In this document: piece after piece, positions 17,715-61,815 of the stretch
Layout: every line of letters starts with the position of its first letter
Position numbering within the stretch: the stretch's first letter is position 1
Assembly (NCBI RefSeq): GCF_011045215.1
Contig: NZ_CP049201.1
Source of the DNA: Escherichia coli
GTDB lineage: Bacteria > Pseudomonadota > Gammaproteobacteria > Enterobacterales > Enterobacteriaceae
Length of the DNA: 64,000 bases
Direction: 5' to 3' (one strand)
Position numbers and translations under genes: made by a program
The notes under the pieces: model-generated
What the model was told of the DNA's origin: nothing
Database searches by the model: none
Seen by the model: the letters and a program-made list of their open reading frames with translations, nothing else

Positions 17715-18845
17715 ATGTTCCAGTTATCCGTACAGGACATCCATCCGGGCGAAAAGGCCGGAGACAAAGAAGAGGCGATTCGCCAGGTCGCTGCGGCGCT
17801 GGTGCAGGCCGGTAATGTAGCAGAAGGCTACGTCAATGGCATGCTGGCGCGCGAACAGCAAACCTCAACGTTCCTCGGCAATGGTATTGCTATTCCACAC
17901 GGCACTACCGACACCCGCGATCAGGTGCTGAAAACCGGCGTTCAGGTATTTCAGTTCCCGGAAGGCGTCACTTGGGGTGACGGTCAGGTAGCGTACGTAG
18001 CGATCGGTATTGCTGCCAGCTCGGATGAGCATCTGGGCCTGCTACGCCAGCTGACCCACGTACTGAGCGATGATTCCGTTGCTGAACAACTGAAGTCAGC
18101 AACAACAGCAGAAGAACTTCGCGCATTGCTGATGGGCGAAAAGCAGAGTGAGCAGCTGAAGCTCGACAACGAAATGCTGACGCTGGATATCGTCGCCAGC
18201 GATCTGCTGACTCTTCAGGCGCTGAACGCTGCGCGTCTGAAAGAAGCGGGGGCAGTTGACGCCACTTTCGTCACCAAAGCCATCAATGAACAACCGCTGA
18301 ACCTCGGACAGGGCATCTGGCTGAGCGATAGCGCCGAAGGCAATTTGCGTAGCGCGATTGCTGTAAGCCGTGCGGCAAATGCTTTTGATGTGGACGGCGA
18401 AACGGCAGCCATGCTGGTGAGTGTGGCGATGAATGACGATCAGCCCATTGCGGTTCTTAAGCGTCTCGCTGATTTGCTGCTCGACAATAAAGCTGACCGC
18501 TTGCTGAAAGCGGATGCGGCAACGTTGTTGGCGCTGCTGACCAGCGATGATGCGCCGACCGACGACGTGTTAAGCGCGGAGTTTGTGGTGCGCAATGAAC
18601 ACGGCCTGCATGCTCGTCCAGGTACCATGCTGGTCAACACCATTAAACAATTTAACAGTGATATTACCGTGACAAACCTTGATGGCACCGGCAAACCGGC
18701 AAACGGACGTAGTCTGATGAAAGTTGTGGCACTTGGCGTTAAGAAAGGTCATCGCCTACGCTTTACCGCCCAGGGTGCAGATGCTGAACAGGCGCTGAAA
18801 GCAATCGGCGACGCTATCGCTGCTGGTCTTGGGGAGGGCGCATAA
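17715..18845 (+). CDS. fruB: Fructose-specific PTS multiphosphoryl transfer protein FruB (EIIA-M-FPr)
   Basis: 376-aa ORF; N-terminal EIIA(Fru/Mtl)-like domain, C-terminal HPr-like domain (GLHARPG motif). Confidence 0.93.
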
Positions 18846-19783
18846 TGAGCAGACGTGTTGCTACTATCACCCTTAATCCGGCTTATGACCTTGTTGGTTT
18901 CTGCCCGGAAATTGAACGCGGCGAAGTGAACCTGGTGAAAACCACCGGTCTGCATGCGGCGGGTAAAGGCATCAACGTGGCCAAAGTATTAAAAGACCTG
19001 GGAATTGATGTCACCGTTGGCGGCTTCCTCGGTAAAGACAATCAGGATGGTTTTCAGCAACTGTTCAGCGAGCTGGGCATTGCCAACCGTTTCCAGGTTG
19101 TACAGGGGCGCACCCGAATTAACGTTAAGCTGACGGAAAAAGACGGCGAAGTGACCGACTTCAACTTCTCGGGTTTTGAAGTCACTCCCGCCGACTGGGA
19201 ACGCTTTGTGACTGATTCTCTGAGCTGGCTCGGTCAGTTCGATATGGTCTGTGTCAGCGGAAGCTTACCGTCAGGCGTCAGCCCGGAAGCGTTCACCGAC
19301 TGGATGACTCGCCTGCGTAGTCAGTGCCCTTGCATTATCTTTGATAGTAGCCGTGAAGCGTTAGTAGCAGGTTTGAAAGCGGCACCGTGGCTGGTGAAAC
19401 CTAACCGCCGCGAGCTGGAAATCTGGGCAGGCCGTAAACTGCCTGAAATGAAAGATGTGATTGAAGCTGCGCATGCGCTGCGTGAACAAGGTATTGCGCA
19501 TGTCGTTATTTCACTGGGTGCCGAAGGCGCGCTTTGGGTTAATGCCTCCGGCGAATGGATCGCCAAACCACCGTCAGTCGATGTCGTAAGCACCGTTGGC
19601 GCAGGGGATTCTATGGTTGGTGGCCTGATTTATGGCTTGCTAATGCGTGAATCCAGTGAACACACACTGCGTCTGGCGACTGCTGTTGCAGCCCTGGCGG
19701 TAAGTCAAAGCAATGTGGGTATTACCGATCGTCCGCAGTTGGCCGCAATGATGGCGCGCGTCGACTTACAACCTTTTAACTGA
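18845..19783 (+). CDS. fruK: 1-phosphofructokinase FruK (PfkB family)
   Basis: 312-aa ORF; start overlaps the fruB stop by 1 nt (ATAATGA); PfkB motifs (GAGDSMVGG). Confidence 0.93.
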   Translation: MSRRVATITLNPAYDLVGFCPEIERGEVNLVKTTGLHAAGKGINVAKVLKDLGIDVTVGGFLGKDNQDGFQQLFSELGIANRFQVVQGRTRINVKLTEKDGEVTDFNFSGFEVTPADWERFVTDSLSWLGQFDMVCVSGSLPSGVSPEAFTDWMTRLRSQCPCIIFDSSREALVAGLKAAPWLVKPNRRELEIWAGRKLPEMKDVIEAAHALREQGIAHVVISLGAEGALWVNASGEWIAKPPSVDVVSTVGAGDSMVGGLIYGLLMRESSEHTLRLATAVAALAVSQSNVGITDRPQLAAMMARVDLQPFN

Positions 19784-19799
19784 CAGCAGGAGAGGCATA

Positions 19800-21491
19800 A
19801 TGAAAACGCTGCTGATTATTGACGCTAATCTCGGTCAGGCACGCGCCTATATGGCGAAGACCCTGCTGGGCGCGGCGGCGCGAAAAGCAAAACTGGAAAT
19901 CATCGACAATCCGAATGACGCAGAAATGGCGATTGTTCTCGGTGATTCCATCCCGAATGACCGCGCGCTGAACGGTAAAAATGTCTGGCTGGGCGATATT
20001 TCCCGGGCAGTTGCGCACCCTGAGCTGTTCCTGAGTGAAGCCAAAGGCCATGCGAAACCTTACACTGCGCCGGTCGCTGCGACAGCACCGGTTGCCGCCA
20101 GCGGTCCGAAACGCGTAGTTGCGGTGACTGCTTGCCCGACTGGCGTAGCACACACCTTTATGGCGGCTGAAGCCATTGAAACCGAAGCGAAAAAACGTGG
20201 CTGGTGGGTGAAAGTTGAAACCCGTGGTTCTGTTGGTGCGGGTAATGCAATCACTCCCGAAGAAGTAGCCGCAGCGGATCTGGTGATTGTGGCGGCAGAT
20301 ATCGAAGTGGATCTGGCGAAATTTGCTGGTAAACCGATGTATCGTACCTCTACCGGTCTGGCGCTGAAGAAAACCGCGCAGGAACTGGATAAAGCGGTTG
20401 CTGAAGCAACGCCGTATGAACCGGCGGGCAAAGCTCAAACGGCGACCTCTGAAGGTAAGAAAGAGAGTGCAGGCGCATACCGTCACTTGCTGACGGGCGT
20501 CTCTTACATGCTGCCGATGGTCGTTGCAGGTGGTCTGTGTATCGCGCTTTCTTTTGCTTTTGGTATCGAAGCGTTTAAAGAGCCGGGTACGTTGGCAGCG
20601 GCGCTGATGCAGATTGGTGGTGGTTCAGCCTTTGCGCTGATGGTGCCGGTACTGGCAGGTTACATTGCCTTCTCCATTGCCGATCGTCCGGGTCTCACGC
20701 CGGGTCTGATTGGCGGTATGCTGGCGGTCAGCACCGGTTCTGGCTTCATTGGTGGTATTATTGCGGGCTTCCTGGCTGGTTACATTGCGAAGTTAATCAG
20801 TACGCAACTGAAACTGCCACAGAGTATGGAGGCGCTGAAACCGATCCTGATCATTCCGCTAATTTCCAGTCTGGTGGTCGGTCTGGCGATGATCTACCTG
20901 ATCGGTAAACCGGTTGCTGGCATTCTCGAAGGGTTGACTCACTGGCTGCAGACCATGGGGACTGCGAATGCGGTTCTGCTGGGGGCGATCCTCGGTGGCA
21001 TGATGTGTACTGACATGGGCGGTCCGGTAAATAAAGCAGCGTACGCATTCGGTGTGGGTCTGCTGAGTACTCAAACCTATGGCCCGATGGCGGCGATTAT
21101 GGCGGCAGGTATGGTGCCACCGCTGGCAATGGGTCTGGCAACAATGGTGGCGCGTCGCAAATTTGACAAAGCGCAGCAGGAAGGTGGCAAAGCCGCTCTG
21201 GTTCTTGGTCTGTGCTTTATTTCGGAAGGTGCAATTCCGTTTGCTGCTCGTGATCCGATGCGTGTGCTGCCGTGCTGTATCGTGGGTGGGGCGCTGACTG
21301 GCGCAATCTCAATGGCGATTGGTGCGAAACTGATGGCACCGCACGGTGGTCTGTTTGTTCTGCTGATCCCTGGCGCTATTACGCCGGTACTGGGTTACCT
21401 GGTAGCAATTATTGCCGGTACGCTGGTGGCGGGTTTGGCCTATGCCTTCCTGAAACGTCCGGAAGTGGACGCAGTAGCGAAAGCCGCGTAA
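19800..21491 (+). CDS. fruA: Fructose-specific PTS EIIB'BC component FruA
   Basis: 563-aa ORF; N-terminal IIB-like domains (VTACPTGVAHT) and C-terminal polytopic IIC domain. Confidence 0.93.
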   Translation: MKTLLIIDANLGQARAYMAKTLLGAAARKAKLEIIDNPNDAEMAIVLGDSIPNDRALNGKNVWLGDISRAVAHPELFLSEAKGHAKPYTAPVAATAPVAASGPKRVVAVTACPTGVAHTFMAAEAIETEAKKRGWWVKVETRGSVGAGNAITPEEVAAADLVIVAADIEVDLAKFAGKPMYRTSTGLALKKTAQELDKAVAEATPYEPAGKAQTATSEGKKESAGAYRHLLTGVSYMLPMVVAGGLCIALSFAFGIEAFKEPGTLAAALMQIGGGSAFALMVPVLAGYIAFSIADRPGLTPGLIGGMLAVSTGSGFIGGIIAGFLAGYIAKLISTQLKLPQSMEALKPILIIPLISSLVVGLAMIYLIGKPVAGILEGLTHWLQTMGTANAVLLGAILGGMMCTDMGGPVNKAAYAFGVGLLSTQTYGPMAAIMAAGMVPPLAMGLATMVARRKFDKAQQEGGKAALVLGLCFISEGAIPFAARDPMRVLPCCIVGGALTGAISMAIGAKLMAPHGGLFVLLIPGAITPVLGYLVAIIAGTLVAGLAYAFLKRPEVDAVAKAA

Positions 21492-21647
21492 TAAAAGGTG
21501 TGTTACAGGGCAGAAATTTACTGCCCTGTATCATTGGATGAGCGCAAAGAGAATGACCGGTTTGTGAATGTAATTTTATGAATTTAAATGGTTTTATCTT
21601 TCAGTAGAAACCTGAAACGTTCATCAAACACTAAGGTTATTTCCTCA

Positions 21648-21675
21648 AGGGCAGATTCTTTTCTGCCCTTTTTTA
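21648..21675 (+). terminator. Rho-independent terminator downstream of fruA (stem aagggcaga/tctgccctt followed by a T5 run)
   Basis: Perfect 9-bp stem, 5-nt loop, then ttttt, ~155 bp after the fruA stop. A weaker hairpin at 21505-21529 (acagggcag...ctgccctgt) lacks a U-tract. Confidence 0.6.
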
Positions 21676-21914
21676 GTGTTCATGTTCTGTGCATCCCGTC
21701 ACAAATTCCTCGCTTTTGTAATTCAGGCATTTAATCGCATTTTGTGAGCCTGCTCAAATCTGCCCGCTTTGCCTCTCTGGCGGCAATTTACTTTACGTAA
21801 AACATGCATACTATGAGCACATGTTTAAATATGAACACATGTTTAAACCGTCTTTGCAGTATCTATATCCTTGTGGATTGACAGGGTTGGTAATTTTTTA
21901 CCAGAGGACGTGCT

Positions 21915-22856
21915 ATGCGCGAAAAGGATTATGTCGTAATTATAGGTTCGGCGAATATTGATGTCGCCGGATATTCACATGAATCATTAAATTATGCGGA
22001 TTCAAATCCAGGTAAAATAAAATTTACGCCTGGTGGAGTAGGGCGAAATATTGCACAAAATCTGGCGTTGCTGGGTAACAAAGCCTGGCTACTGAGCGCA
22101 GTAGGCAGTGATTTTTATGGCCAATCGCTGCTAACGCAAACCAATCAATCTGGCGTTTATGTCGATAAATGCCTGATTATGCCGGGAGAAAATACGTCGA
22201 GCTATTTATCATTACTCGATAATACCGGTGAAATGCTGGTTGCTATAAATGACATGAATATTAGCAACGCTATTACAGCTGAATATCTCGCACAGCACCG
22301 TGAATTTATTCAGAGGGCAAAGGTCATTGTCGCGGACTGTAATATCAGTGAAGAGGCACTGGCATGGATTCTGGATAATGCCGCCAACGTACCCGTATTT
22401 GTCGATCCGGTTTCAGCGTGGAAATGTGTCAAAGTGCGCGACCGTCTAAATCAGATCCACACTCTGAAGCCAAACCGCCTTGAAGCGGAAACCCTGAGTG
22501 GGATAGCGCTGTCAGGGCGTGAAGATGTGGCAAAGGTTGCCGCCTGGTTCCATCAACATGGCCTGAACCGACTGGTATTGAGCATGGGCGGCGACGGCGT
22601 TTATTACAGTGATATCAGCGGTGAAAGTGGTTGGTCTGCGCCGATCAAAACCAATGTTATTAATGTTACCGGAGCGGGCGATGCCATGATGGCGGGACTT
22701 GCTTCGTGTTGGGTAGACGGAATGCCGTTTGCCGAATCTGTTCGTTTCGCACAGGGATGTTCGTCAATGGCGCTCTCCTGTGAATACACCAATAACCCCG
22801 ATTTATCGATTGCCAACGTTATATCGTTAGTGGAGAACGCAGAATGTCTGAATTAA
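21915..22856 (+). CDS. psuK: Pseudouridine kinase PsuK (YeiC), PfkB family
   Basis: 313-aa ORF; PfkB motifs (GGVGRNIAQNLALLG, GAGDAMMAG). Confidence 0.88.
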   Translation: MREKDYVVIIGSANIDVAGYSHESLNYADSNPGKIKFTPGGVGRNIAQNLALLGNKAWLLSAVGSDFYGQSLLTQTNQSGVYVDKCLIMPGENTSSYLSLLDNTGEMLVAINDMNISNAITAEYLAQHREFIQRAKVIVADCNISEEALAWILDNAANVPVFVDPVSAWKCVKVRDRLNQIHTLKPNRLEAETLSGIALSGREDVAKVAAWFHQHGLNRLVLSMGGDGVYYSDISGESGWSAPIKTNVINVTGAGDAMMAGLASCWVDGMPFAESVRFAQGCSSMALSCEYTNNPDLSIANVISLVENAECLN

Positions 22857-23782
22857 AAATTTCCCCTGAATTATTACAAATTTCCCCGGAAGTGCAGGAC
22901 GCTTTAAAAAACAAAAAACCGGTTGTGGCGCTGGAATCGACCATTATTTCTCACGGGATGCCGTTCCCACAAAATGCCCAGACCGCAATTGAAGTTGAAG
23001 AAACTATTCGTAAACAGGGCGCTGTACCTGCCACTATCGCCATTATTGGCGGCGTGATGAAAGTTGGTTTAAGCAAAGAAGAAATTGAATTACTGGGTCG
23101 TGAAGGGCATAACGTGACCAAAGTTAGTCGTCGCGATTTACCTTTTGTTGTTGCCGCCGGAAAAAATGGCGCAACCACTGTGGCTTCAACGATGATTATT
23201 GCGGCGCTTGCCGGAATTAAAGTATTTGCCACCGGGGGAATTGGTGGTGTGCATCGCGGGGCGGAACATACCTTCGATATTTCTGCCGATTTGCAAGAAC
23301 TGGCAAATACTAATGTCACCGTTGTTTGTGCCGGGGCGAAATCTATTCTCGATTTAGGATTAACCACTGAGTATTTAGAAACCTTCGGTGTGCCGTTAAT
23401 TGGCTATCAGACTAAAGCGCTGCCTGCGTTTTTCTGCCGTACCAGCCCGTTTGACGTCAGCATTCGTCTCGACAGCGCCAGTGAAATTGCCCGTGCAATG
23501 GCGGTGAAATGGCAAAGCGGGCTGAACGGTGGCCTCGTGGTAGCGAACCCGATCCCGGAACAGTTTGCGATGCCAGAACACACTATCAATGCGGCGATCG
23601 ATCAGGCGGTAGCTGAAGCTGAAGCGCAGGGTGTTATTGGTAAAGAAAGTACGCCATTCCTGCTGGCGCGCGTTGCTGAACTGACCGGCGGTGACAGCCT
23701 GAAATCCAACATTCAACTGGTGTTCAACAACGCCATTCTGGCGAGTGAAATTGCCAAAGAATACCAGCGTCTCGCGGGTTAA
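22844..23782 (+). CDS. psuG: Pseudouridine-5'-phosphate glycosidase PsuG (YeiN)
   Basis: 312-aa ORF overlapping the psuK 3' end by 13 nt; IndA/PsuG-family sequence. Confidence 0.88.
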   Translation: MSELKISPELLQISPEVQDALKNKKPVVALESTIISHGMPFPQNAQTAIEVEETIRKQGAVPATIAIIGGVMKVGLSKEEIELLGREGHNVTKVSRRDLPFVVAAGKNGATTVASTMIIAALAGIKVFATGGIGGVHRGAEHTFDISADLQELANTNVTVVCAGAKSILDLGLTTEYLETFGVPLIGYQTKALPAFFCRTSPFDVSIRLDSASEIARAMAVKWQSGLNGGLVVANPIPEQFAMPEHTINAAIDQAVAEAEAQGVIGKESTPFLLARVAELTGGDSLKSNIQLVFNNAILASEIAKEYQRLAG

Positions 23783-23875
23783 TTTCTGACGGGCAGAAAG
23801 CCGTCGCCCGTACTCATCAAACATACCAAAACCTGGCGCTGACGCCGGGTTTACTGGCATGAAGGGAAAATCATT

Positions 23876-25126
23876 ATGGACATAATGAGAAGTGTTGTGG
23901 GGATGGTGGTGTTACTGGCAATAGCATTTCTGTTGTCGGTAAATAAAAAGAGCATCAGTTTGCGCACGGTTGGAGCCGCACTGCTGCTGCAAATCGCTAT
24001 TGGTGGCATCATGCTCTATTTTCCGCCGGGAAAATGGGCTGTAGAACAGGCGGCATTAGGCGTTCATAAAGTGATGTCTTACAGTGATGCCGGTAGCGCC
24101 TTCATTTTTGGTTCGCTGGTCGGGCCGAAAATGGATGTCCTCTTTGACGGTGCGGGTTTTATCTTCGCCTTTCGCGTACTCCCGGCGATTATCTTCGCCA
24201 CTGCGCTCATTAGTCTGCTGTACTACATTGGCGTGATGGGGCTGCTGATTCGCATCCTTGGCAGCATTTTCCAGAAAGCCCTCAACATCAGCAAAATCGA
24301 ATCTTTTGTTGCGGTTACCACTATTTTCCTCGGGCAAAATGAGATCCCGGCGATCGTTAAACCGTTTATCGATCGCATGAATCGCAACGAGTTGTTTACC
24401 GCAATTTGTAGCGGGATGGCGTCCATTGCGGGTTCGATGATGATTGGTTATGCCGGAATGGGCGTACCAATTGACTACCTGTTGGCGGCATCGCTGATGG
24501 CGATCCCCGGCGGTATTTTGTTTGCACGTATTCTTAGTCCGGCAACCGAGCCTTCGCAGGTCACATTTGAAAATCTGTCGTTCAGTGAAACGCCGCCAAA
24601 AAGCTTTATCGAAGCGGCGGCGAGCGGTGCGATGACCGGGTTGAAAATCGCCGCCGGTGTGGCGACGGTGGTAATGGCGTTTGTCGCAATTATTGCGCTG
24701 ATTAATGGCATTATCGGCGGAATTGGCGGCTGGTTTGGTTTTACCAATGCTTCTCTGGAAAGTATTTTTGGCTATGTGCTGGCACCGCTGGCGTGGATCA
24801 TGGGTGTGGACTGGAGTGATGCCAACCTTGCGGGTAGCCTGATTGGGCAGAAACTGGCGATTAACGAATTCGTCGCTTACCTGAGTTTCTCCCCATACCT
24901 GCAAACGGGCGGTACGCTGGAAGTGAAAACCATTGCGATTATCTCCTTTGCGCTTTGTGGTTTTGCTAACTTTGGTTCTATCGGTGTTGTCGTTGGGGCA
25001 TTTTCGGCTATTTCGCCAAAACGTGCACCGGAAATCGCTCAGCTTGGTTTACGGGCGCTGGCAGCAGCAACGCTTTCCAACCTGATGAGCGCGACCATTG
25101 CCGGGTTCTTTATTGGTTTAGCTTGA
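23876..25126 (+). CDS. psuT: Nucleoside (pseudouridine) transporter PsuT (YeiM), NupC/CNT family
   Basis: 416-aa polytopic ORF; paralogous to nupX in this window (mostly identical alignment by eye). Confidence 0.88.
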   Translation: MDIMRSVVGMVVLLAIAFLLSVNKKSISLRTVGAALLLQIAIGGIMLYFPPGKWAVEQAALGVHKVMSYSDAGSAFIFGSLVGPKMDVLFDGAGFIFAFRVLPAIIFATALISLLYYIGVMGLLIRILGSIFQKALNISKIESFVAVTTIFLGQNEIPAIVKPFIDRMNRNELFTAICSGMASIAGSMMIGYAGMGVPIDYLLAASLMAIPGGILFARILSPATEPSQVTFENLSFSETPPKSFIEAAASGAMTGLKIAAGVATVVMAFVAIIALINGIIGGIGGWFGFTNASLESIFGYVLAPLAWIMGVDWSDANLAGSLIGQKLAINEFVAYLSFSPYLQTGGTLEVKTIAIISFALCGFANFGSIGVVVGAFSAISPKRAPEIAQLGLRALAAATLSNLMSATIAGFFIGLA

Positions 25127-25133
25127 GTTTCAT

Positions 25134-25172
25134 TGCCGGATGTACTCGCTTATTAAGCGTTGCATCCGGCAA
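25134..25172. terminator. Hairpin (ttgccggatg ... catccggcaa) between convergent psuT and yeiL; possible bidirectional terminator
   Basis: 10-bp inverted repeat with a 19-nt loop immediately after the psuT stop and before the yeiL stop. Confidence 0.45.
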
Positions 25173-43389: not shown

Positions 43390-44400
43390 ATGAGTGCGTT
43401 AAATAAGAAAAGTTTTCTTACTTACCTGAAAGAGGGCGGTATTTACGTCGTTCTTTTAGTTTTGCTGGCGATTATTATTTTCCAGGACCCAACATTTTTA
43501 AGTCTGTTGAACTTAAGTAATATTCTCACCCAGTCATCGGTGCGTATTATTATCGCGCTCGGCGTGGCAGGGTTAATTGTCACCCAGGGGACCGACCTTT
43601 CTGCAGGTCGTCAGGTGGGGCTGGCGGCAGTAGTAGCGGCGACGTTATTGCAGTCCATGGATAACGCCAACAAAGTGTTCCCGGAAATGGCGACGATGCC
43701 GATTGCGCTGGTTATTCTGATTGTCTGTGCCATTGGTGCGGTGATCGGTTTGATCAACGGTCTGATTATCGCTTATCTCAACGTGACGCCGTTCATTACC
43801 ACGCTTGGCACGATGATCATCGTCTATGGCATCAACTCGCTCTATTACGACTTTGTCGGGGCGTCGCCAATTTCTGGTTTTGACAGTGGCTTCTCTACCT
43901 TTGCTCAGGGCTTTGTCGCGCTGGGGAGTTTCCGTCTCTCTTACATCACCTTCTACGCGTTGATTGCGGTGGCGTTCGTCTGGGTGTTGTGGAACAAAAC
44001 CCGCTTCGGTAAGAACATTTTTGCCATTGGCGGTAACCCGGAAGCGGCAAAAGTATCTGGTGTCAACGTCGGCCTGAACCTGCTGATGATCTACGCGTTG
44101 TCTGGTGTGTTCTATGCCTTCGGCGGGATGTTAGAAGCCGGACGTATCGGTTCTGCCACCAACAACCTCGGCTTTATGTATGAACTGGATGCTATCGCGG
44201 CGTGCGTGGTAGGCGGTGTATCGTTCAGCGGCGGTGTGGGGACGGTGATTGGCGTGGTGACCGGGGTAATTATTTTTACCGTCATCAACTATGGCCTGAC
44301 GTATATCGGCGTAAACCCATACTGGCAGTACATCATCAAAGGGGCGATTATTATCTTCGCCGTAGCGCTGGATTCACTGAAATACGCGCGTAAGAAGTGA
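43390..44400 (+). CDS. mglC: Galactose/methyl-galactoside ABC transporter permease MglC
   Basis: 336-aa polytopic ORF immediately after mglA. Confidence 0.93.
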   Translation: MSALNKKSFLTYLKEGGIYVVLLVLLAIIIFQDPTFLSLLNLSNILTQSSVRIIIALGVAGLIVTQGTDLSAGRQVGLAAVVAATLLQSMDNANKVFPEMATMPIALVILIVCAIGAVIGLINGLIIAYLNVTPFITTLGTMIIVYGINSLYYDFVGASPISGFDSGFSTFAQGFVALGSFRLSYITFYALIAVAFVWVLWNKTRFGKNIFAIGGNPEAAKVSGVNVGLNLLMIYALSGVFYAFGGMLEAGRIGSATNNLGFMYELDAIAACVVGGVSFSGGVGTVIGVVTGVIIFTVINYGLTYIGVNPYWQYIIKGAIIIFAVALDSLKYARKK

Positions 44401-44454
44401 TATGATTGTGGTCCGCATTCGGTCATAAACGCACATAACATCATGATCTGTGTG

Positions 44455-44875
44455 GTTTTGTAGGCCGGATAAGGCGTTCACGCCGCATCCGGCGACAGGA
44501 GCCAAATGCCGGATGCAACGCTGGCGCGTTTTATCCGGCCTACAATGAGCTCAACATACTGATTTGTATGGTTTTGTAGGCCGGATAAGGCGTTCACGCC
44601 GCATCCGGCGACAGGAGCCAAATGCCGGATGCAACGCTGGCGCGTTTTATCCGGCCTACAATGAGCTCAACATACTGATTTGTATGGTTTTGTAGGCCGG
44701 ATAAGGCGTTCAAGCCGCATCCGGCGACAGGAGCCAAATGCCGGATGCAACGCTGGCGCGTTTTATCCGGCCTACAATGAGCTCAACATACTGATTTGTA
44801 TGGTTTTGTAGGCCGGATAAGGCGTTCAAGCCGCATCCGGCGACAGGAACCAAATGCCGGATGCGTCTCTGGTTT
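44455..44875. repeat. Tandem BIME/REP array: ~3.6 copies of a 116-bp unit, each holding two inverted REP palindromes
   Basis: The motif gtaggccggataaggcgttca[c/a]gccgcatccggcg recurs at 44460, 44576, 44692 and 44808 (period exactly 116 bp), each followed by the inverted gccggatgcaacgctggcgcgttttatccggcctac. The last unit is cut off at the preA stop codon. Confidence 0.9.
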
Positions 44876-46110
44876 TACAACGTTACCGGGTGTTCTTTCT
44901 CGCCTTTCTTAAACTTCACTTCCCCGAGCTCAATACAACCCACCGGGCAGACGTGACCACAAAGCAGACAACCCACACATTTCTCGGTATTACAATGCGG
45001 TGTGCGGGTTTTCTCGCTCCATTCCATCGCCTGGTGACCGCCGTCGTAACAGGAAATATAACAGCGTCCACAGCCAACACATTTATCAAGATTGATACGG
45101 GGATAGACAATATAACTGCGGTCTAAATCTTCCGCCGGGACAATATTGTTATTCGCCAGACCTACCATCTCCTGCAACGAATCAAATCCCTGATCGGCGA
45201 GATAATGCGATAACCCGCTCGCCATATCTTCTACGATGCGATAGCCGTACTGCATAATGCCGGTGGTGACCTGTAACGTTGCTGCGCCGAGCAATAAAAA
45301 CTCCGCCGCATCCTCCCAGGTTTCAATGCCGCCGATACCGCTGATTGGGAAATCGCGCAGTTCTGGATGGGTGCGCATTTGCTGAATGAAGCGCAGGGCG
45401 ATCGGTTTTACCGCTTTACCGGAATATCCGGAAATACTCGATTTTCCGTTAACGATCGGCATACCGATTTTCTGATTAAGATCGATATTGGTGATGGATT
45501 TAACAGTGTTAATCGCCGCAATGCCATCTGCGCCGCCGCGCTTCGCCGCCAGCGCCACTTCGCACATATCACCGATATTCGGCGTCATCTTCGCCAGCAT
45601 TGGCAGCGTGGAACCCCGTTTCACTGCCCGACAATATTTTTCTACCAGCTCCGGGCTTTGCCCGACATCGCTACCCATCGCATGAGAAGTCATTTGCGGA
45701 CAGGAGAAGTTACACTCGATCATATCCGCGCCAGCTTCTTGCACCAGGCGCGCCAGCTCCTCCCATTGCTGCTCATTTTCCCCCATGATCGAAGCGATCA
45801 ATACTTTGTCCGGGTAATCTTCCTTCAGCCGACGCAGGGCGGCCAGATTCTCTTCCAACGGATGTTCAGCAATCTGCTCCATATTTTTGAAGCCGATAAA
45901 ACCGATATCTTCTTTCACCAGATGATCAAAACGCGGCGAGACTTCGTTGGCGATAAAAAAGCCGATCGTTTTAAACACCACGCCGCCCCAACCTGTGTCG
46001 TAGGCTTTGGCACACATCTCATAGCAGTTGCCTACCGGCGAAGAAGAGAGGCAGAACGGGTTGGGAAACTTCACGCCGCAAAAAGTAATCGAAAGATCTT
46101 TCGTTAACAT
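44875..46110 (-). CDS. preA: NAD-dependent dihydropyrimidine dehydrogenase subunit PreA (YeiA)
   Basis: ORF 44875..46116; 411 aa from [12 protein letters not shown]...; dihydroorotate dehydrogenase-like domain plus two C-terminal 4Fe-4S ferredoxin motifs ([23 protein letters not shown]). Confidence 0.92.
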
Positions 46111-47342
46111 GAGCAAGCTCCCTCTAAATAGTGATGAATCGCCTCGGCGGCTTCTTTCCCGGTTTTCACGGCATAGACCACGGTTTTGTCACCCTCAACA
46201 ATATCGCCAGCAGCAAAGACTTGCGGATCGCGGGTCTGATAATTTTGTGTTTTGATGGTGTTACGCTGCGGCTCTAACTCCGCAAAGGCATCCAGTCTGG
46301 CATGCTGACCGACGGCGAGAATAATTTTATCTGCCACCATCGTCAGTTCGCCCGATAACCGTACATGCTTAAATGTGACTTTATTGCCTTCCACGGCTAC
46401 TGGCGTGAATCCATCGATGATCGAAACGCCCAGCTCCCGGGCGCTGGCAAACTCTTTTTCGCTTGCCGGAAACTCATCTAACTCTTCACGCGCTACGCAA
46501 GTTACCGCCTGACAGCCGAGAACTTTCAGCGTGCTGGCTACGTCCATCGCGACATCACCGCCGCCGATAATTAATGCGCTTTGTGGAATGCTGATATCGC
46601 CTTGCGCCTGTCGTGCACGTAGCAGGAAGTCGACGGCAATCTCAACGTCGCTATGCTCAAACAGCGGTAGCCCGGAACCGCTTGATAACCCCACGGTGAC
46701 CAGTACCGCGCGGTTTTCCGCTTTCAGTTGCTCCAGGGTGAGTGTTTTACCGATTTCGTTATTGCACTTAATGGTCACGCCCATTTTTTCAATACGGGCG
46801 ATCTCTGCATCCAGCACTGATTGCGGTAACCGGAATTGCGGAATACCGTTACGCAACCAGCCACCGGGGTGCGCTTCTTTCTCATAAATCGTGACGTCAT
46901 AACCCTGGTTTGTCAGTGTCACACTGGCCTGCAACCCGGCAGGACCTGCGCCAATAATCGCGACTTTGCCGAGCGTTTTAGTACCGGGCTGATAAATTTC
47001 CATCCCGGTTTGTTGTTCAAAATCAGTAACAAAACGCTGTAAGCGGCCGATATCAATGGGAGCATCAACCCCGGCACGGGTACAACCGCTTTGGCATAAT
47101 TTCTCCGTCGGGCACACTCTGGCACAAACGGCACCGAGGGCATTATTTTCGCGAATTGTCTCGGCAGCGCCTTTAAAATTACGAAAGTAGATTGAGCGAA
47201 TAAATTTCCCCGGATCGGTCTGTGCCGGGCAAGCCTGACTACAGGGAGCGTCGTGACATAATAAACAGCGAGAGGCTTCTTTAATCGCCAGTAAAGGCGT
47301 AAGAGCCGGAGTGAGTTCATCCAGATAATTTTGTTGCGGCAT
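46104..47342 (-). CDS. preT: NAD-dependent dihydropyrimidine dehydrogenase subunit PreT (YeiT), GltD-like
   Basis: 412-aa ORF with Cys cluster near the N-terminus and FAD/NAD-binding GxGxxG (IIGAGPAG); 3' end overlaps the preA start. Confidence 0.92.
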
Positions 47343-50787: not shown

Positions 50788-50989
50788 TTAATTCGTAAAA
50801 CGTGCTACCGATCACATTAAGAAATCAGCGCTTATTTTTTCGCTCCCCGGTATTACGCAATGAGCAGCGAACTCAGGCATACATCAAGCATAGAGAGGGA
50901 TTGCAGTTTGCAGCAATCCCTCTTTGCAGACCTTTAATCCGCTGACCATAGGCGCTAACATAGCGCCTCATTTTTTTGCGGGTGATGAT

Positions 50990-56350: not shown

Positions 56351-56523
56351 AAAGTTCTTTGACGTTGCATTGCTGGCGTAAATGTCAGCAATGCAGCATT
56401 TCCTCACGATTCTCCTTTGACGATCGCACTTTTTGCTCGTTATGATGGCGTCGCTAGCCTCAGTAAATCCTTACTCCGGCGGTGCGCAACCCGTGCGCGT
56501 GAACCACTATCTGAATGCTCATC

Positions 56524-61777: not shown

Positions 61778-61815
61778 GTAGGCCGGATAAGGCGCTCGCG
61801 CCGCATCCGGCAGGA
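61778..61815. repeat. REP element between bglX and osmF
   Basis: gtaggccggataaggcgctcgcgccgcatccggcagg: canonical REP palindrome. Confidence 0.7.

Follow-up and report, generated by a model that had tools for sequence, protein, structure and literature searches.

The closest described counterpart of the array reported here is REP156 of Escherichia coli K-12 MG1655, which is catalogued at 2236535-2236684 (EcoCyc numbering) in the convergent context of preA and mglC in the supplement of bioRxiv 10.64898/2026.03.23.713779; the K-12 RefSeq annotation gives no repeat feature at mglC-preA. The same study reports an in vitro Rho-binding peak, obtained in the presence of NusG, at 2236464-2236532, which is sense to preA and lies 3 nt from REP156. 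A second relative is REP325, the BIME-2 between yjdM and yjdN that is associated with naRNA1-6 and the Rfam model RF02564, and which has been described as a partly Rho-dependent attenuator and a stabiliser of upstream mRNA (bioRxiv 10.64898/2026.03.23.713779). Besides BIME-1 (also known as RIP or RIB) and BIME-2, an atypical class of BIME has been defined, largely by exclusion, as a multi-copy chimera of BIME-1 and BIME-2 motifs whose copy number varies between strains (PMC3333891).

The array in the window, by which we mean the whole stretch of 64,000 nucleotides that was analysed, is an expanded allele of REP156 and so a known kind of element in which only the copy number is unusual. The two alleles share the locus, the flanking genes, the convergent context and approximately 98% of their DNA sequence, and both are built from Y REPs, Z2 REPs, the l linker, a 32-nt linker and a terminal remnant. 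The key difference lies in their size, with K-12 carrying two Y and one Z2 in a 242-bp spacer and the window carrying four Y and three Z2 in 474 bp. They also differ at two short sites, where K-12 has AACAGGAG and AATAAGC, and the window has GACAGGAG and AATGAGC.

Upstream of the array lies mglC, the last gene of mglBAC (43390-44400, plus strand, stop codon TGA at 44398-44400), and facing it is preA, the last gene of preTA (44875-46116, minus strand, stop codon TAA at 44877-44875), both assigned from their open reading frames and the annotation of homologous loci. The preA annotated in relatives is 1236 nt long. Of the 474 bases between the two stop codons the array fills 428, or 90%, and in the ORF listing it is wholly intergenic. 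Small open reading frames of 43-47 aa inside the array were set aside as gene candidates; they arise from the repeat as duplicates of each other and begin with TTG, and 116 is not a multiple of three. The 3' UTR of mglC enters the array, with the first REP starting 59 nt past the mglC stop, and on the preA mRNA the first canonical REP, which is the fourth Y REP, is met 33 nt past the preA stop.

Tandem Repeats Finder describes 44437-44864 as 3.7 copies of a 116-bp period with 98% matches, no indels and a score of 807, and a repeat search of the window returned three 204-nt copies spaced exactly 116 nt from start to start. The array contains seven complete REP palindromes, four Y (34 nt, starting at 44460, 44576, 44692 and 44808) and three Z2 (36 nt), together with one 17-nt Z2 remnant at 44856-44872. 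These are joined by four 14-nt tail-to-tail linkers and three 32-nt head-to-head linkers, so that the order Y REP, l linker, Z2 REP, head-to-head linker is repeated three times and is then followed by a fourth Y, an l linker and the decayed Z2. A sequence-only reading of this region had proposed a head-to-tail BIME-type array of 116-bp periodicity, with seven REP palindromes in alternating orientation between convergent mglC and preA, and all of this is borne out, the remnant being an addition to its count. It had also placed the end of the array at the preA stop, which agrees with the truncated REP found there, the repeat similarity ceasing 2-10 nt short of the codon. Its single conserved linker per unit corresponds to the 32-nt head-to-head linker, but the second linker, the 14-nt tail-to-tail GACAGGAGCCAAAT, had been missed.

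All parts of the array are described here on the plus strand. The leader at 44431-44459, GCACATAACATCATGATCTGTGTGGTTTT, is a decayed first head-to-head linker, as judged from the start of the array at 44437 and from a divergent Escherichia that has an intact Z2 plus linker at the same place, and what is left of the ancestral first Z2 immediately precedes it at approximately 44411-44430. Y REP 1 (44460-44493) is GTAG-first, has a C in its loop at 44481, folds into a hairpin of -19.5 kcal/mol and was located by both regular expression and folding. It is followed by l linker 1 (GACAGGAGCCAAAT, 44494-44507), which falls on the l segment in the alignment with the naRNA4 model, and by Z2 REP 1 (44508-44543), which has the CTAC end, a hairpin of -20.5 kcal/mol and two differences from the naRNA4 consensus that are compensated base pairs. 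Head-to-head linker 1 (44544-44575) is the 32-nt AATGAGCTCAACATACTGATTTGTATGGTTTT, with the IHF-core consensus AATCAGTATGTTG on the minus strand at 44552-44564.

Unit 2 repeats unit 1 exactly, with Y REP 2 at 44576-44609 (loop C at 44597), an identical l linker at 44610-44623, Z2 REP 2 at 44624-44659 and head-to-head linker 2 at 44660-44691 (IHF-core consensus at 44668-44680, minus strand). Unit 3 is a hybrid in which a terminal-type Y loop (Y REP 3, 44692-44725, loop A at 44713) is followed by an l linker of the unit-1 type at 44726-44739, with G at 44733, and a full Z2 REP 3 at 44740-44775; head-to-head linker 3 occupies 44776-44807 and again has the IHF-core consensus on the minus strand, at 44784-44796. 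Z2 REPs 2 and 3 and the terminal Y were placed by regular-expression mapping, the last also by comparison of alleles. The terminal unit consists of Y REP 4 (44808-44841, loop A at 44829), the l linker variant GACAGGAACCAAAT at 44842-44855 and the decayed Z2 GCCGGATGCGTCTCTGG at 44856-44872, which adjoins the preA stop at a distance of 2 nt, was recognised as an inverted repeat and corresponds to a full Z2 in the divergent Escherichia. The remnant can pair with the tail of Y REP 4 through 13-bp arms at 44829-44841 and 44856-44868. Across the four units the loop position therefore reads C, C, A, A at 44481, 44597, 44713 and 44829, the same division of units 1-2 from units 3-4 that had been read from the sequence before, and a second SNP in the short l linker reads G, G, G, A at 44501, 44617, 44733 and 44849.

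The elements conform to REPs, or palindromic units, in sequence and in structure. The Y (34 nt, -18.5 to -19.5 kcal/mol) and the Z2 (36 nt, -20.5 kcal/mol) both carry GTAG/CTAC, and both strands of the region fold much more stably than shuffled controls (z = -14.1 and -16.1). An E. coli genome has a median of at least 23 places that match pieces of the region, with 9 places at E<=1e-10, and identical Y and near-identical Z2 elements are found at numerous loci across several genera of enterobacteria, Escherichia among them. Recurrence dozens of times per genome is the signature of the REP family, so the repeats are not unique sequence, an outcome that the sequence-only reading had named among those that would overturn it. 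A scan for terminators found three terminator-like sites where 1.0 +/- 1.0 were expected, all of which consist of the same 6-bp Z2 stem and a following CGTTTTATCC that belongs to the REP itself.

Three Y-l-Z2 modules match the Rfam model RF02564 (naRNA4, REP325 module) on the plus strand, at 44463-44540 and 44579-44656 with 85.8 bits each and at 44695-44772 with 78.7 bits, against a gathering score of 59.5. The lower score of the third module is due to the loop SNP, C to A, by which one apical base pair is lost. In the scan of the window neither the minus strand nor the terminal module reached the gathering threshold, the latter giving a sub-threshold match of 38 bits at 44811-44874. The model essentially recognises any Y-l-Z2 module, so a match indicates membership in sequence and structure and not function, and matches of this kind are no evidence of a specific sRNA gene.

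The array and REP325 are both tandem Y-l-Z2 arrays of near-identical units with model matches above threshold, and they have the same module order and the same GTAG-first orientation relative to the upstream gene. They differ in that REP325 has a period of 100 and 5.8 copies, a head-to-head spacer of 16-17 nt (AAATTCCCGCACCCTCC) and a Z2 of the CCTGATG type, and lies between tandem genes of one operon, whereas the window array has a period of 116 and 3.7 copies, a 32-nt spacer and a Z2 of the CCGGATG type, and lies between convergent operons. REP325 shares the Y-l-Z2 modules and has the shorter spacer, which makes the 32-nt linker the distinguishing part of the array. The alternating Y and Z2, the tail-to-tail l motif and the 3.7 tandem copies are all features of BIME-2, but the short head-to-head S motif of that class is absent from the array, its place being taken by the 32-nt, locus-specific linker.

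The array also resembles BIME-1 in having a long head-to-head linker between a Z-type and a Y-type REP (32 nt here, 35 nt in BIME-1) and an IHF core consensus at the corresponding place. The Z partner is different, the array having the 36-nt Z2 GCCGGATGCAACGCTGGCGCGTTTTATCCGGCCTAC and BIME-1 the canonical Z1 TGCCTGATGCGCTACGCTTATCAGGCCTAC of 29-30 nt, and BIME-1 is single-copy (PMC3333891) whereas the array is in tandem. The combination of Y, Z2 and l with a long non-S head-to-head linker in tandem, in a locus with alleles of 0, 1, 2, 3 and 4 Y, makes this an atypical BIME under the definitions of PMC3333891. Other Enterobacteriaceae contain comparable Z-linker-Y arrays, such as one in Pseudocitrobacter faecalis (L067) with three copies 112 bp apart, which likewise has alternating REPs and a period near 110-116 bp. 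In these arrays a head-to-head linker of approximately 30-40 nt is conserved within each array, and they differ from the present one in species, locus and linker sequence.

The head-to-head linker of the array is locus-specific. With a 36-nt query it was recovered at 1,734 places in 1,732 genomes at high stringency and 2,835 places in 2,823 genomes at lower stringency, all of them chromosomal, and those inspected sit at mglC-preA. For comparison with the L motif of BIME-1 one genome per species was scanned for GGCCTAC-N(20-45)-GTAGGCCGGATAAGGCG, and a profile was made from 49 linkers, the dominant class in the scan being Z1 followed by a 35-nt linker with the consensus AaGgtttCTGCAATATATTGAATTTGCAcGATTTT. 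Although the linker in the window is approximately 67% identical to this consensus by eye, the profile of 49 L motifs has no match in the array, the linker scoring -1.1 bits with 47 of 1000 shuffled sequences equal or better, so that it is no demonstrable L motif and this assignment was rejected. Each linker copy carries a perfect match to the 13-nt IHF core consensus WATCARNNNNTTR on the minus strand. K-12, a B2-type allele and the lineage with flanking genes 91% identical to those of the window all retain this core. The consensus is weak, and 64 kb would be expected to contain 4.4 matches by chance. The earlier suggestion of an IHF platform is consequently not established, the linker having the core consensus but failing to match the profile of canonical IHF-binding L motifs.

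Among 5,426 complete RefSeq E. coli genomes, a set that does not include the genome of the window itself, 5,425 matched a 1,101-bp query covering the array and its surroundings, and 2,877 genomes cover at least 80% of it. Span classes taken from an evenly spaced sample of the ranking measure 985, 869, 753 and 697 bp, compared with 1,101 bp in the window. The alleles form a series in which the spacer is 70 bp with no canonical REP and only the mini-hairpin GCCGGATGCGCTGCATCCGGC (as in L002), 126 bp with one Y (as in L005), 242 bp with two Y (K-12) or 358 bp with three Y (ETEC6335 and S30). We estimate that the REP-free 70-bp allele accounts for approximately 47% of the 5,426 genomes, the two-Y allele for approximately 52% and the one-Y allele for approximately 1%. 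Since approximately 47% of E. coli genomes have no canonical REP at this place, the array is dispensable.

Larger alleles are rare in this collection. All but about a dozen of the approximately 2,823 linker-bearing genomes have exactly one copy of the linker, and only three, ETEC6335, S30 and the Nissle 1917 record CP007799.1, align with the canonical order linker-Y-l-Z2-linker as a single piece. A two-unit query was matched in one piece in 0 of 5,426 genomes and the canonical four-Y form was not found among them, so the window allele is larger than any canonical allele in the collection; the best match to it is 99.3% identical and has one unit fewer. One genome has three linker-like places, which two targeted searches showed not to be a canonical four-Y array and which are probably accounted for by chimeric alleles with diverged linkers, such as GF60. 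Further chimeric alleles, of which GF60 is an example, also occur. In CP007799.1 the three-Y array is joined to norR and not to preA, whereas the Nissle derivative PBP8 has two Y followed by preA, which indicates a rearrangement or misassembly at the BIME in CP007799.1. The expectation that copy number would often differ between strains is thus overstated, since the number of units is rather stable and the main polymorphism is the presence or absence of the array.

An older form of the locus is preserved in the divergent Escherichia L081, whose flanking genes are approximately 91% identical to those of the window and in which the site reads Z2-linker-Y-l-Z2-linker-Y-l-Z2. The final Z2 is complete here, and its CTAC head supplies the preA stop, TAG on the coding strand. 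From this arrangement the E. coli leader at 44431-44459 is identified as the decayed first linker and the terminal remnant as a decayed Z2. In the 70-bp allele the beginning of the ancestral first Z2, GTGGATATTGCCGGATGCG, is still present, and for this reason the allele appears to be the product of a deletion spanning the large Z2-linker-Y palindrome and not a site that was never occupied.

The way in which the array grew can be read from SNPs compared unit by unit between the window, ETEC6335, S30, K-12 and 21B8. All five have the same terminal unit, consisting of loop A, GACAGGAA and the remnant, and in the multi-unit alleles compared the first unit has loop C. Between them ETEC6335 has a further C unit (C, C, A-terminal), S30 has an A unit with the unit-1 linker (C, A with unit-1 linker, A-terminal), and the window has both (C, C, A with unit-1 linker, A-terminal). 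The extra units either duplicate unit 1 exactly or are hybrids that combine the terminal Y loop with the unit-1 linker and Z2. Just these forms result from unequal exchange of one unit at a time between first-type and terminal Y REPs, within the Y REP and on one or the other side of the loop SNP. The crossover sites would lie before the SNP within TGGTTTTGTAGGCCGGATAAGGCGTTCA, or after it, between 44713 and 44733. The SNPs flanking the array in the window are identical to those of ETEC6335, and the window allele is, judging by these markers, an ETEC6335-type allele plus one further exchange. Growth started from the common two-Y form and added one 116-bp unit per step, probably by unequal homologous exchange or replication slippage with crossovers inside the Y REP.

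The earlier proposal of amplification in two-unit blocks does not survive this comparison, since both the SNPs and the three-unit intermediates show steps of a single unit. Duplication of a two-unit block would account for the superficial grouping of the Y-loop SNP as C, C, A, A, yet a duplicated (C, A) pair predicts C-A-C-A, which is unseen, and the terminal unit is without most of Z2 and the long linker, so it cannot belong to a duplicated block and the internal remnant that such a block predicts is absent. Given also the existence of the single-unit intermediates C-C-A in ETEC6335 and C-A-A in S30, we regard growth by blocks as extremely improbable. A different question is which machinery carried out the exchange. 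TnpA-REP (RAYT) cleaves BIMEs at CT sites in iREPs or linkers and recombines them in vitro, and the authors of that work propose it as a source of BIME amplification (PMC3333891); cutting and rejoining by this enzyme at iREP or linker sites might have made the extra units, a reading for which the inclusion of the GTAG head in the first inferred junction window, TGGTTTTGTAGGCCGGATAAGGCGTTCA, speaks. Against this, both junctions fall within long stretches of perfect identity between units, as plain homology-driven exchange predicts, and the second junction window (44713-44733, the Y tail plus l) has no reported iREP I or II site. The sequence alone would fit RAYT recombination and homologous exchange or slippage equally, and on balance we consider a RAYT origin of the extra units unlikely. 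It could also be that the count of four is an artefact of assembly and that the source strain has the common two- or three-unit allele, an idea that draws on the 0 canonical four-Y alleles in 5,426 complete genomes and on the discrepancy between Nissle CP007799.1 (three Y, norR) and PBP8 (two Y, preA), which puts BIMEs at assembly or rearrangement breakpoints. The internal SNPs are coherent, however, forming an order (C, C, A with unit-1 linker, A-terminal) that lies one step beyond the independently sequenced ETEC6335, and artefactual expansion would more probably give identical units, which makes this explanation very unlikely.

By analogy with the described systems, we think it likely that the array, as an expanded REP156 allele grown stepwise, acts on the transcripts of mglBAC and preTA as a 3'-UTR hairpin barrier and attenuator in both directions. 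Both mglBAC (plus strand) and preTA (minus strand) would be transcribed into the array, and the RNA from either strand is predicted to form a row of stable REP hairpins. Such hairpins could block 3'-to-5' exonucleases and so stabilise the upstream mRNA, as the data for REP325 and for REPs genome-wide suggest, and could attenuate read-through, partly via Rho, so that less transcription enters the opposing operon. A REP between convergent genes is associated with higher expression of the two partners, and many such REPs are located in bidirectional terminators (genome-wide REP studies); the Rho-binding peak adjoining REP156 would fit the attenuation picture for preTA. Against a barrier stand the dispensability of the array and the finding that REPs do not uniformly lengthen mRNA half-lives, their effects depending on context (bioRxiv 10.64898/2026.03.23.713779). 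The additional units probably provide redundancy or make the barrier modestly stronger, and the change in copy number itself is most likely nearly neutral.

A translation-coupled effect was also considered. According to the summary in PMC12306157 of the work of Liang, Rudd & Deutscher (2015), a REP hairpin no more than 15 nt downstream of a stop codon causes translational down-regulation. The canonical REPs lie 33 nt (preA) and 59 nt (mglC) past the stops, beyond the 15-nt rule, and the effect was rejected for them. The non-canonical pairing of the remnant with the Y tail starts 6 nt past the preA stop, and the minimum-energy fold does not use it.

Two other roles have to be weighed against a hairpin barrier at the 3' ends. 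In one, the array is a source of naRNA4-like RNAs, each Y-l-Z2 giving a 77-nt two-hairpin RNA that together with HU bridges cruciforms and condenses the chromosome. The naRNA4 of REP325 binds HU and condenses DNA (PMC4550694), and three modules of the array exceed the RF02564 gathering threshold, which by the breadth of that model shows membership only. A follow-up study, in which HU, cruciform DNA and naRNA4 did not assemble into a stable ternary complex and REP-REP contacts were not seen in Hi-C (bioRxiv 10.64898/2026.03.23.713779), contradicts the nucleoid-condensation reading that it follows and weighs heavily against it, and we give this role very little chance. In the other, which is compatible with a function at the RNA level, the main role would be played by the DNA itself as a phased platform, with gyrase on the Y REPs and IHF on the three linkers forming a topological barrier. 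The perfect core in every linker and its retention in K-12, the B2-type allele and the 91%-identical lineage are consistent with this, as is the period, 116 bp being approximately 11.0 helical turns, so that the sites would all point to the same side of the helix. BIME-2 elements are enriched in gyrase cleavage sites, chiefly in their y-type REPs (PMC6379681), but the gyrase-site supplements searched have no mglC, preA or REP156 entry. As the linker moreover fails the L-motif profile and the core is expected to occur by chance several times in a window of this length, a main role at the DNA level seems improbable. A more specific form of the idea takes the linker as a conserved, locus-specific IHF site, whose same-face bends would alternate with gyrase-binding Y REPs in a phased barrier that scales with copy number, so that rare expansions such as the four-Y allele would tune supercoil diffusion and the expression of mglBAC and preTA; resting on the sequence pattern, this is a candidate to which we attach only a slim probability.

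The hairpin barrier thus stays the preferred reading of an ordinary, textbook REP/BIME at a catalogued site, with well-precedented behaviour. The SNPs that mark its units show that arrays of this kind grow unit by unit, through exchange inside the Y REP. Together, the alleles with 0, 1, 2, 3 and 4 Y and their SNP-marked junctions could serve as a natural, isogenic-like series for relating REP copy number to termination and mRNA stability between convergent operons.

The terminal Z2 REP of the mglC–preA locus is complete in a divergent Escherichia lineage (locus L081, 7236–7480, taken from the reverse strand of NZ_JAATUR010000014.1). There the preA stop codon is supplied by the conserved CTAC head of the terminal Z2, which reads TAG on the coding strand, whereas the window retains just a decayed Z2 remnant and a TAA stop (44856–44877). 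In approximately 47% of complete E. coli genomes the mglC–preA spacer is 70 bp long and holds just a mini-hairpin, GCCGGATGCGCTGCATCCGGC (1802–1871 in the representative locus L002), and this short allele keeps the beginning of the ancestral first Z2. The allele of strain GF60 is chimeric, with the same mini-hairpin joined to two Z2–linker copies and one Y (555–860 in its fetched locus, L010).

Beyond the mglC–preA array, REP-family sites in the window include a solitary Y-type REP (GTAGGCCGGATAAGGCGCTCGCGCCGCATCCGGC) at 61778–61811 and a short hairpin, GCCGGATG...CATCCGGC, near 25135–25170. TRF also reports a 26-nt period repeat within the preA coding region (45434–45484; 1.9 copies, 84% matches), but its score of 72 is low and the repeat is probably due to chance. 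A Peptidase-S11 RNA motif (Rfam RF03039) is found on the plus strand at 56439–56519; its score is 72.8 bits, where the gathering score is 34.8. Collinearity with ETEC6335, the closest complete genome, puts the expected start of pbpG at about 56524, so that the motif directly precedes it. Between yohJ and dusC, ETEC6335 carries a catabolic island of approximately 6.2 kb for 3-hydroxybenzoate and gentisate (mhbT, gtdA, maiA and others; 17816–24006 in its fetched locus, L132) that is missing from the window at 50823–50950.

In the O157:H7 strain TR01 (NZ_CP033605.1) there is only a partial match to the linker-containing sequence, at 3011683–3011803, while in other O157:H7 genomes the match lies at about 1.7–1.8 Mb on the chromosome. 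The partial match and unusual position together suggest an inversion or an altered allele. In the E. coli Nissle 1917 record (NZ_CP007799.1, 5244147–5245714) a version of the array with three Y REPs is followed by norR rather than preA, while the Nissle derivative PBP8 has two Y REPs followed by preA. The Nissle 1917 record has therefore been rearranged or misassembled, and in either case the breakpoint is at the BIME.
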